A stretch of DNA of 64,000 nt from Ostrea edulis (lineage: Eukaryota), in the NCBI RefSeq assembly GCF_947568905.1, contig NC_079164.1, positions 46,004,001 through 46,068,000 on the forward strand, read 5' to 3'. Under the pieces are notes generated by a model. That model had not been told where the DNA came from, did no database searches, and was given only the letters and a program-made list of their open reading frames with translations. Of the stretch, positions 36,657-39,928 are shown piece after piece (within the stretch, counting starts at the first letter, position 1; the number at the start of each line of letters is the position of its first letter). Both the position numbers and the translations under genes were made by a program.

Positions 36657-39600
36657 TTACAGGCTAAGTCTCTTTGCGACACTTTTAGCCCTGGTACGTT
36701 GTGAAATAGGTTCATCGTCATCATCACCAAGGAGAGGTCGAGTTACTGAAACTACTGTGTTGGGGGTTGACGCCGATAAACTGCTGGGGGTGGTAGCAAT
36801 GGAAGATGGTGTGTGCAATAAATGCATTCTTATCTGCTCTACAGTTTCACGAGTGCACGGTGTTGAAGGTGGTGATGGTGTTCTAGGAAGATGGTTGACT
36901 TGCCTTCTACAGCAGCATTTTATTTTCGAAAGCAAAAGATGCCTTATCACAATCAGAATAATGGCAAGTGTTGTGACAACTGCCCAGGCAAAAACACCTA
37001 TTAAAAGTTAGAACAAGTAATTACAATTAACACTTTCATCAATGCATCAAACACAACATACAAATACAACAAGTAATTATCAAAAAAAAAAAATCTGTTC
37101 AGTTCATTCTCATGGATAATTAACATCAGTAGGGTTTCAAACTGACCTGCGGTCCCAGGCACGTCAAATTCTTCGGTAGATAATTGTAACCCTGGAATTT
37201 AAAAACACAAAACATTAGCCCAAAAATCATAATTGTGATAATCGTAATAGTCTCAACAAAGAATTTGCATGTCTACACAAGAATTTAACAATAAAGCTTT
37301 ACAATTCATTTCTAAAAGAAATTGAAATTGGCTTAACATGTATGATATCTATTTATTAACATTTTTCAACAAAAGCAGTCCTACCTCGAGTTGTACTTTT
37401 CAATGACGCTGGCCCAATCCAAGCCCTCCCTTGTGTTCTTGCTGATGAAGTGGATGGTATTGTAGAAGTGGCCAACATCTTGGACTCTTCAGTAGGCATA
37501 TCTGCAATACATTTTTTTTTTTACACAGAGGTGGTGACTATTTTGGGGTTTTTTTTTTCCTGGTAAGAAAAATACTACTTTGCTTTTTAATCTTTCAATA
37601 ATATTTCTGAATTATACTCTTGTTAAATTGTTGTGTAAAACTACTGAGTCAACCTAGTTCAATTAAGGTTATCCATCCCTCAGGTGTCAGAAATTGAAAA
37701 TGCTCTTTTCCATTATCAATTTATATGTTGATCAAGATTCGCAGTTGATATAGATATGTATTCTGGTGGATAATTGATAATCATTCAATCAGAATATAAT
37801 AGAAAACATTTTTTTTTTTAAATTTCATCATTATCTTATATATGTATGAGTTACCCCGCCTTGCTGAGGGATATATAACGTTAAAGCAGTCCTACCTCGA
37901 GTTTTACTTTTCAATGACGCTGGCCCAATCCAAGCCCTCCCTTGTGTATTTGCTGATGAAGTGGATGGCACTGTAAAGATGACCAACATCTTGGACTCTT
38001 CAGTAGGCATATCTGCAATACATTTTTTTTTTACACAGAGGTGGTGACTATTTTGGGGTTTTTTTTCCTGGTAAGAAAAAAATACTACTTTGCTTTTTAA
38101 TCTTTCAATAATATTTCTGAATTATACTCTTGTTAAATTGTGTAAAACTACCAAGTCAACCTAGTTCAACAAATGCAGTCCTACCTTGAGTTGTACTTTT
38201 CAATGACGCTGGCCTAATCCAAGCCCTCCCTTGTGTTCTTGCTGATGAAGTGGATGGTATTGTAGAAGTGGCCAACATCTTGGACTCTTCAGTAGGCATA
38301 TCTGCAATATATTTTTTTTTTACACAGAGGTGGTGACTATTTTGGGTTTTTTTTTCCTGGTAAGAAAAATACTACTTTGCTTTTTAATCTTTCAATAATA
38401 TTTCTGAATTATACTCTTGTTAAATTGTTGTGTAAAACTACTGAGTCAACCTAGTTCAATTAAGGTTATCCATCCCTCAGGTGTCAGAAATTGAAAATGC
38501 TCTTTTCCATTATCAATTTATATGTTGATCAAGATTCGCAGTTGATATAGATATGTATTCTGGTGGATAATTGATAATCATTCAATCAGAACATAATAGA
38601 AAACATTTTTTTTTTAATTTCATCATTATCTTATATATGTATGAGTTACCCCGCCTTGCTGAGGGATATATAACGTTAAAGCAGTCCTACCTCGAGTTTT
38701 ACTTTTCAATGACGCTGGCCCAATCCAAGCCCTCCCTTGTGTATTTGCTGATGAAGTGGATGGCACTGTAAAGATGGCCAACATCTTGGACCCTTCAGTA
38801 GGCATATCTGCAATACATTTTTTTTTTACACAGAGGTGGTGACTATTTTGGGGGTTTTTTTCCTGGTAAGAAAAAAATACTACTTTGCTTTTTAATCTTT
38901 CAATAATATTTCTGAATTATACTCTTGTTAAATTGTGTAAAACTACCAAGTCAACCTAGTTCAACAAATGCAGTCCTACCTTGAGTTGTACTTTTCAATG
39001 ACGCTGGCCCAATCCAAGCCCTCCCTTGTGTATTTGCTGATGAAGTGGATGGTATTGTAGTGGTGGCCAACATCTTGGACTCTTCAGTAGGCATATCTGC
39101 AATACATTTTTAAAAGGAGCGGTGATTATTTTTTTTTAGGGGATCTACAACAAAAACAAAATGTTTACTTTCAGTTTCACTGTACACCCTCTAACAAAGG
39201 GAACGTTTCAAACTTCCGATTTCACATTCCCTGTATGTACCCCGAACCCGATCATACGAGTACTTATTTTAGATACCAGTCACAGTTAGAACTGAAAACA
39301 CGAGTTATTAATTTGTTCTTGATATTTACAGAAACGTTCTAAGAATCAGTTAAGACTAAATTACATAATTAAATACCAATACACAAGTTGTACAAACGTA
39401 AACATTCCATAGTAAAAGACGCAGTGATTTGATTGGTTTATGAAAATATCACGTGGTCCTATTTTTCTCACGATACATCATTCGTTAAAAACCCCCTCCT
39501 CTTCTAGCAAATCACCACAACAACGACAAACAACGACTTGTCGTTCAAAAAATGATATATTAAGTGGTCAAATACACGTTAATTTGAAATAATGAAAACC

Positions 39601-39928
39601 CTAAGTACTACTTACTGAATACACTGGCACATTGATGTCCCCTAATGTCCCGCACTACTGGAAAGTCAGTAAGGGACTCCCACTTTCTGTTGACCACAAT
39701 ATCGATAGTACACATAGGGACGCGAATTTCACGGATTTGGGTTCTGGCACGATTAAGGAAAACACTGACACAATTGTTCTTGTAAGTTTTACACGTTACA
39801 ACTCCACGTTTGTTCAGACATCTTGGACACTGCGCAACATCCATAATTTTAGCAAAAGTATAAAAATCTTGAAGTGTCATCATCACTATTGCAGCACATA
39901 TCACACATGCTGTAGTTCGTCCTTCCAT
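36657..39928 (-). CDS. Predicted spliced type I membrane glycoprotein (~427 aa): signal peptide, Cys-rich ectodomain, 5 mucin-like exons, TM, CCC, tail
   Basis: Exons 39928-39616, 39096-38980, 38807-38691, 38301-38185, 38012-37896, 37501-37385, 37191-37147, 36997-36657. All introns are phase-1 GT-AG and the frame is open. Confidence 0.7.
37385..39096. repeat. Higher-order tandem duplication (~800-bp unit of two exon-intron modules; spacings 511, 289, 506, 289)
   Basis: Five near-identical 117-bp exons with duplicated intronic flanks. Confidence 0.92.

Follow-up and report, generated by a model that had tools for sequence, protein, structure and literature searches.

Hypervariable predicted surface proteins, exchanged as a cassette, in Polintons of the oyster Ostrea edulis

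Our analysis points to a family of hypervariable predicted surface proteins in Polintons of the oyster Ostrea edulis, whose genes are exchanged as a cassette between elements. The Polinton element type, the mosaicism of the group, the intron-bearing cargo of nematode elements, and RefSeq gene models were already known. Neither the family nor its exchange was described in the literature that we searched; Repbase, subscription journals, and preprint supplements lay outside this search and may annotate the family. One account merely lists Mavericks in bivalves (PMC10294476). It has long been asked if animal Polintons behave like viruses, and a clade-wide, transcribed, hypervariable predicted surface protein that is swapped among young near-identical elements would be the footprint of an interaction outside the nucleus, for which a pure transposon would have no need. 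It would also provide a concrete marker for Polinton particles, or for expressing cells, in a farmed oyster.

The gene lies on the minus strand of the window, by which we mean the whole 64,000-nt stretch of DNA that was analyzed. Its eight exons, when joined, give an open frame of 427 codons from the ATG at 39928, all seven introns being of the GT-AG type and in phase 1, with no stop codon at any junction. The gene is real and its eight-exon structure is confirmed: the exons lie where the original prediction had put them, the peptides quoted there match, and its statement that all introns are phase 1 is borne out.

39616..39928, minus strand: exon 1, predicted signal peptide and six-cysteine tip domain (~75 aa, small beta-rich predicted fold), from sequence and model
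38980..39096, minus strand: stalk repeat exon 1, 117 nt, S+T 36%; repeat-repeat joints in contigs at exon borders
38691..38807, minus strand: stalk repeat exon 2, 117 nt, S+T 28%
38185..38301, minus strand: stalk repeat exon 3, 117 nt, S+T 36%
37896..38012, minus strand: stalk repeat exon 4, 117 nt, S+T 28%
37385..37501, minus strand: stalk repeat exon 5, 117 nt, S+T 36%; contig joint to the linker exon
37147..37191, minus strand: acidic linker exon, 45 nt; joints on both sides in contigs
36657..36997, minus strand: transmembrane (TM) helix, juxtamembrane cysteines, and an S/T/P tail in which TR[SA]K and a basic-x-L-x-F/L end are conserved; joint to the linker exon in two studies

The predicted protein shows the type-I membrane mucin-like layout that had been proposed, with an N-terminal signal peptide (a moderate hydropathy peak of 1.65), a stalk of S/T/P tandem repeats, and one TM helix (a strong hydropathy peak of 2.62). 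Serine and threonine make up 32% of the whole stalk; the ~36% claimed for the repeat exons holds for three of them but not for the other two, which have 28%. There is no N-glycosylation sequon in the ectodomain of the window allele. The gene is not hidden, as had been thought, since it is already modeled by RefSeq as proteins of 390 aa (three repeats) and 467/468 aa (five repeats), both starting at an upstream in-frame ATG at 40051 that adds 41 residues. These models, named "mucin-2-like" and "uncharacterized protein LOC130046266" of Ostrea edulis, and related oyster models have the same exon structure as described here, but their names are automatic, are drawn from composition alone, and mention neither Polintons nor each other. 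Membership of the gel-forming mucin-2 family was rejected because the 467-aa model has no VWD, C8, or CTCK match in Pfam.

Splicing was assessed from thirteen runs, none of them recorded as RNA; for seven, RNA is the guess of the tool, and four of those seven, from two studies, were mapped. The transcript contigs came from the organism coded A and the best DNA matches from the organism coded B. At GT-AG sites, contigs join 1) the TM exon to the linker exon (two runs, two studies), 2) the linker to the last repeat exon (one run), and 3) repeat to repeat at exon borders (4/4 runs). Since the repeat-repeat joints fall at exon borders, the A-rich acceptors that had been regarded as weak are in use, and spliced joints are thus documented for the 3′ exons. 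Up to eight letters of the TM exon are not the same in contigs and window. The contigs are therefore related alleles, and it is the allele type that is shown to be spliced, not the window copy itself. Exon 1 was covered by contigs in none of the four runs; its junction is indirectly supported by the RefSeq models and by a conserved donor, a phase-1 GT being found shortly after the last cysteine position in 15/15 tip exons examined, at 20–50% protein identity. A short secreted form, using an acceptor at 39291, had also been envisaged. That acceptor sequence is present, and its use would give a stop after about six codons, but the single contig there runs unspliced over 39140-39377 (intron 1), across the proposed acceptor, and neither AATAAA nor ATTAAA occurs within 39300-39097, which leaves this form unsupported. 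Another contig joint ("skip 1479") was not accepted as exon skipping because the repeats are near-identical. For another allele, the isoforms in RefSeq are told apart by a linker of 21 residues, which is consistent with exon skipping in that allele.

The gene sits in the following element, next to a divergently transcribed gene.

22444..43877, no strand assigned: host Polinton/Maverick with terminal inverted repeats, integrase, double-jelly-roll capsid, protease, packaging ATPase, pPolB, and CARD-PC4 and PP1-binding genes, from sequence and Pfam
41463..43145, plus strand: second predicted spliced gene, five exons with phase-2 introns, from sequence, with homologues in other types

The terminal inverted repeat arms (22443-22656 and 43665-43878) are 98% identical, and a 6-bp target site duplication, CTTCTG, flanks both ends of the element. 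Pfam matches were obtained for pPolB (PF03175, E 3e-25 and 9e-21), integrase (rve, E 3e-11), and protease (Peptidase_C5, E 1e-4), while those for capsid (PF21738, E 0.003) and ATPase (Pox_A32, E 0.002) are both under the curated cut-off; capsid, protease, and ATPase lie in the usual Polinton order. The host element is an ordinary Polinton, as the original prediction had assumed, with the same kind of termini, 6-bp target duplication, and five core genes as Polinton/Maverick (Polintoviricetes) elements. In both the window and the other elements examined, pPolB (30783-35481, minus strand) is in two ORFs; a GT donor-like site is the same in three of four elements checked, and the interruption is likely an intron rather than a lesion. 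Accessory genes on the plus strand encode a PC4 protein with a hydrophobic segment (23135-23575), a small GADD34-type PP1-binding protein (23619-23843), and a CARD-PC4 fusion (24100-25170). The predicted product of the divergent plus-strand gene ends in a basic stretch that we take to be like a nuclear localization signal and in what is presumably a PP1-binding motif.

Homologues are found in the same slot and orientation at no fewer than 29 places in the genome, i.e., eight sister copies and at least 21 further places that came from searching the genome with either the TM exon or a divergent tip exon as query, and from regions beside capsid matches; these counts are lower bounds. As many as 27 of the 29 places are beside Polinton genes or a terminus. 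The two exceptions are a near-copy of such a place (L022, resembling L021, with another element on its downstream side) and a broken relic (L046) with no Polinton context within ~10 kb each way. In this genome, we found no host donor gene for the protein and no domesticated, intact copy outside a Polinton context. Together with the placement of the copies, this leaves the original suggestion of a captured host gene unsupported. A related explanation is that the gene came from the host, is carried passively, and does nothing for the element. Nematode Mavericks do have cargo genes with introns close to a terminal repeat (10.1101/2022.07.12.499685), and the wasp/krma cargo genes in question lie, as here, in a poorly conserved region. 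However, nematode cargo consists of unrelated enzymes, whereas here the same kind of gene is present in every examined element of the clade, in a fixed slot and orientation, and it has retained its cysteines, its donor phase, and its tail motifs although silent divergence is saturated. With none of 39 repeat exons carrying a stop and no host source gene in sight, passive cargo is very improbable and already largely refuted.

The family comprises 14 tip-domain types, with a median tip identity of 31%. Whole genes of every type encode 1) a hydrophobic start, 2) a six-cysteine domain (without the middle cysteine pair in one type), 3) an S/T/P stalk, and 4) a TM-tail exon. The tip type of L049/L050 has four cysteines, without the third and one neighboring cysteine or the loop between them, and a tail without the conserved end; this cysteine loss may be a hint as to disulfide pairing. 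The tails share juxtamembrane cysteines. Once seven near-identical or frameshifted rows had been removed, TR[SA]K was found in 12/14 tails and the basic-x-L-x-F/L end in 11/14, against at most 1 and 2 in shuffles, the patterns having been drawn post hoc from related sequences. S/T-P was enriched over shuffles in only 3/14 tails. The conserved end presumably resembles the cyclin-docking RxL motif. That RxL-type motifs bound by cyclins exist is documented (PMC2636798). Crassostrea angulata and two species of Saccostrea have annotated full-length homologues of the same architecture. A phage collection contained no relative. Three candidates were dismissed: a weak C4 match (E 0.27) with no domain match, a fungal TPR protein (P0015) attributed to chance, and a single metagenome match that is a high-GC chance TM match. 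As for their location, 25/29 places are on C8, in clusters near 4-5, 25-27, 33, and 51-52 Mb; by contrast, members of a distant Polinton family occur across all the large contigs.

In the window type, the exon 1 protein is 100% identical at seven places in the genome (the eighth copy is split), and the eight sister copies are >99% identical, yet they contain 3, 3, 5, 5, 5, 5, 6, and 7 stalk exons. Stalk length thus changes by exon duplication, as had been anticipated, and the repeat exons, 117 or 114 nt long, are indeed open, with stops in 0/39 across the eight copies. Among nine distinct 117-nt repeat exons, which is a small sample, 13/13 codon variants change the residue. Between tip types, the stalks are unrelated, with whole-exon duplication in the window type and in-exon repeats of 45, 48, 60, or 99 nt elsewhere, which clearly illustrates how a mucin stalk can be rebuilt by either route independently.

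The feature that the original prediction missed, and which is the main one, is wholesale allele exchange. It concerns the following region.

35466..42705, no strand assigned: exchangeable cassette (~7 kb), unalignable to the sister element on C9, with both flanks ~99% identical

The C9 element (L031, L052, L053) is 99–100% identical to the window in 14/14 other proteins, save for a short diverged stretch at the start of pPolB, and its DNA is ~99% identical over 22444-35466 and 42705-43877. In contrast, the tips are 31% and the TM exons 35% identical, as measured on the same-type copy L029. In a third element (L025, L054, L055), the same 14 proteins are 93–100% identical and the tip 29%. Over 11 elements, median identity is 31% for the tip versus 79% for the pPolB segment, and three elements identical in the pPolB segment have tips that are 29, 31, and 42% alike. 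Silent sites in the tip are saturated (median pS 0.76, pN 0.50, 78 pairs). Saturated silent divergence of the tips, combined with near-identical backbones, argues for old constrained alleles put on young backbones by recombination, rather than for fast mutation. The C9 element is moreover chimeric, since the last exon of its plus-strand gene is of the window type and the earlier exons are from another type, with a swap breakpoint at the end of exon 4 of that gene. These comparisons indicate that tip and stalk are swapped wholesale between elements as a ~7-kb cassette. Mosaic exchange of modules is known in Polintons, where it is reported for replicase and capsid modules (10.64898/2026.10.13.758929); here, what is exchanged is a cassette with a spliced gene for a predicted membrane protein, while the backbone stays near-identical. 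Trees of the tip and of the TM exons were unresolved (0/8 branches starred in each), and tip and TM identities are uncorrelated (rho 0.04), which hints weakly at swapping within the gene.

Two nested insertions were observed, both cross-type: one element, of a different tip type, is inserted in exon 1 of a copy of the gene described here, with a GATGTC duplication (L017:4081/L016, C8 4.12-4.14 Mb), and the second lies in pPolB (L027). Together with the many coexisting types, they are what would be expected if the protein served in allele-specific exclusion or self-recognition, keeping same-type elements from entering or spreading. This is quite unlikely, however, because only two nested cases were found among 14 informative flanks (16 were taken, two being unusable or duplicate), one allele is present in the genome in eight coexisting copies, and capsid proteins are 99–100% identical across types, so that variation would not be needed in a protein that blocks capsid entry. 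The earlier idea of a superinfection block directed at the element's own entry is likewise a poor fit, with unrelated tips carried by elements whose capsids are 99–100% identical.

The tip domain was characterized using two AlphaFold models of different alleles (pLDDT 79.6 and 82.8, pTM 0.68 and 0.67), both of which show a small domain built of six short strands and, at the N-terminus, a short helix. There was no match over cut-off in Pfam, none in a PDB sequence search, and none in the Atlas for the window exon. A Foldseek search at E<=0.001 returned nothing in PDB for either model or in BFVD for the first, and the best VIA Z scores were 2.5 and 2.7. The tip thus appears, from these models, to be a small cysteine domain with no known fold match, newly in hand, although absence of a match does not prove a new fold. 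The Saccostrea homologue gave an ESM Atlas lead to BAMBI/activin-receptor decoy-type ectodomains (0.81), which is lead-level only. Three-finger ectodomains (activin receptor, BAMBI, Ly6) are similarly small cysteine-rich beta domains starting with CxxC, but they have 8–10 cysteines where the tip has only six, and neither Pfam, hhalign, Foldseek, nor VIA supports the link; an hhalign profile comparison with one oyster activin-receptor-type exon gave 0.2%, i.e., no match. This lead bears on the possibility that the gene is a host-benefit defense protein that protects the carrier of the element against another oyster pathogen, such as a herpesvirus. Surface mucin-type proteins can hinder virus entry, and the concentration of 25/29 places on one chromosome, C8, would also fit. 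Since the Atlas score is at the level of a lead, the exon profile gave no match, and no domesticated, context-free intact copy was found in the genome, we judge a defensive role decidedly improbable.

Our best explanation, which we put forward tentatively and with somewhat less than even confidence, is that the gene encodes a variable surface protein acting on the host oyster cells in the manner of adenovirus E3 proteins. A variable tip, a rebuilt spacer, and a constant tail together suggest that the partner outside the cell changes while the intracellular one stays the same. In the mechanism that we propose, a spliced gene whose predicted product is a type-I membrane glycoprotein occupies a fixed slot in one Polinton clade, and recombination exchanges the tip and stalk of this product between elements. 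After cleavage of the signal peptide, O-glycosylation of the stalk, and disulfide bonding of the tip, the protein would be displayed at the surface of the carrier cell and, like adenovirus E3 CR1, engage a changing host immune or adhesion partner. The juxtamembrane cysteines may be palmitoylated, and the tail may bind a constant intracellular partner. Rare tip types would be favored, leading to the retention of old alleles and their movement onto new backbones, while the stalk may merely hold the tip above the glycocalyx and hence be free to be rebuilt.

E3 CR1 proteins are membrane glycoproteins. In adenovirus D, a nonenveloped relative, the E3 CR1 genes are hypervariable and recombining, fall into discrete types, and function in immune evasion (PMC6141750). 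The likeness to E3 CR1-alpha/beta/gamma, which we regard as one of working and not of descent, extends to an accessory, hypervariable, recombining region that exists in discrete types and is lower in GC in adenovirus D and here alike (33% vs. 41%). The CARD-PC4 and PP1-binding genes of the element also support an E3-like role. There is no sequence or fold link, adenovirus E3 Pfam families being matched by 0/13 tip sequences and 0/5 full proteins, and the present gene differs in its six-cysteine tip, its exon-built stalk, its location in an integrated element, and its invertebrate host. Points against this reading, besides the missing sequence link, are the lack of contig cover for exon 1, the contig lying unspliced in intron 1, the origin of the contigs from related alleles, the missing N-glycosylation sequon, the S/T-P enrichment in so few tails, the lack of adaptive immunity in oysters, and the fact that the same pattern of variation is expected of a particle attachment protein.

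Such an attachment protein, on membrane-wrapped Polinton particles or vesicles, is possible but doubtful. Its tip would pick the target cell, the stalk would extend and shield, and the basic tail would bind capsid or packaged chromatin at budding. Viral attachment proteins are laid out in the same way, with a variable tip on a mucin stalk and a conserved TM and tail; the combination of near-identical capsids and different tips is compatible with a receptor-binding part that can be swapped; and the TRSK of the tail may resemble nucleosome arginine anchors. Viral arginine-anchor peptides bind nucleosomes (PMC9040877). The premise of the original prediction that Polintons are nonenveloped is not general, since nematode Mavericks encode a fusogen, MFUS-1, which likewise has a signal peptide and a single TM, and were proposed to form enveloped particles (10.1101/2022.07.12.499685). 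However, MFUS-1 is an 866-aa, gB-like, and conserved protein, its median identity being 85% (10.1101/2023.08.22.554363), unlike the small hypervariable tip on a mucin stalk seen here. A large class III fusion ectodomain of the MFUS-1/gB type is lacking, the folded ectodomain being only ~75 aa, and the element contains no fusogen-sized ORF. Nor was a relative found in a single-protein scan of IMG/VR viral contigs, and the gene is absent from the single element examined in each of two Polinton families of this genome that are more distant. The absence of a fusogen-sized ORF and the near-identity of capsids across types favor a role at the surface of the carrier cell. A stronger version, in which oyster Polintons have serotypes, with membrane-wrapped exit, a swappable attachment glycoprotein of new fold, and cell tropism set by cassette exchange, we consider unlikely; if true, a single surface marker would suffice to detect Polinton particles directly in an animal.

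Two ~14-kb elements (L071:6948 to L070:660, and L075 to L074) have Polinton ends and keep the tip exon but no core genes, and are possibly nonautonomous; the PP1-binding gene is kept in one of the two. A distant high-copy Polinton family carries ORFs that we labeled by eye as macrodomain-like, proline-rich RING-like, and zinc-knuckle (L062:2639-3151, 3304-4098, and 7152-8114).
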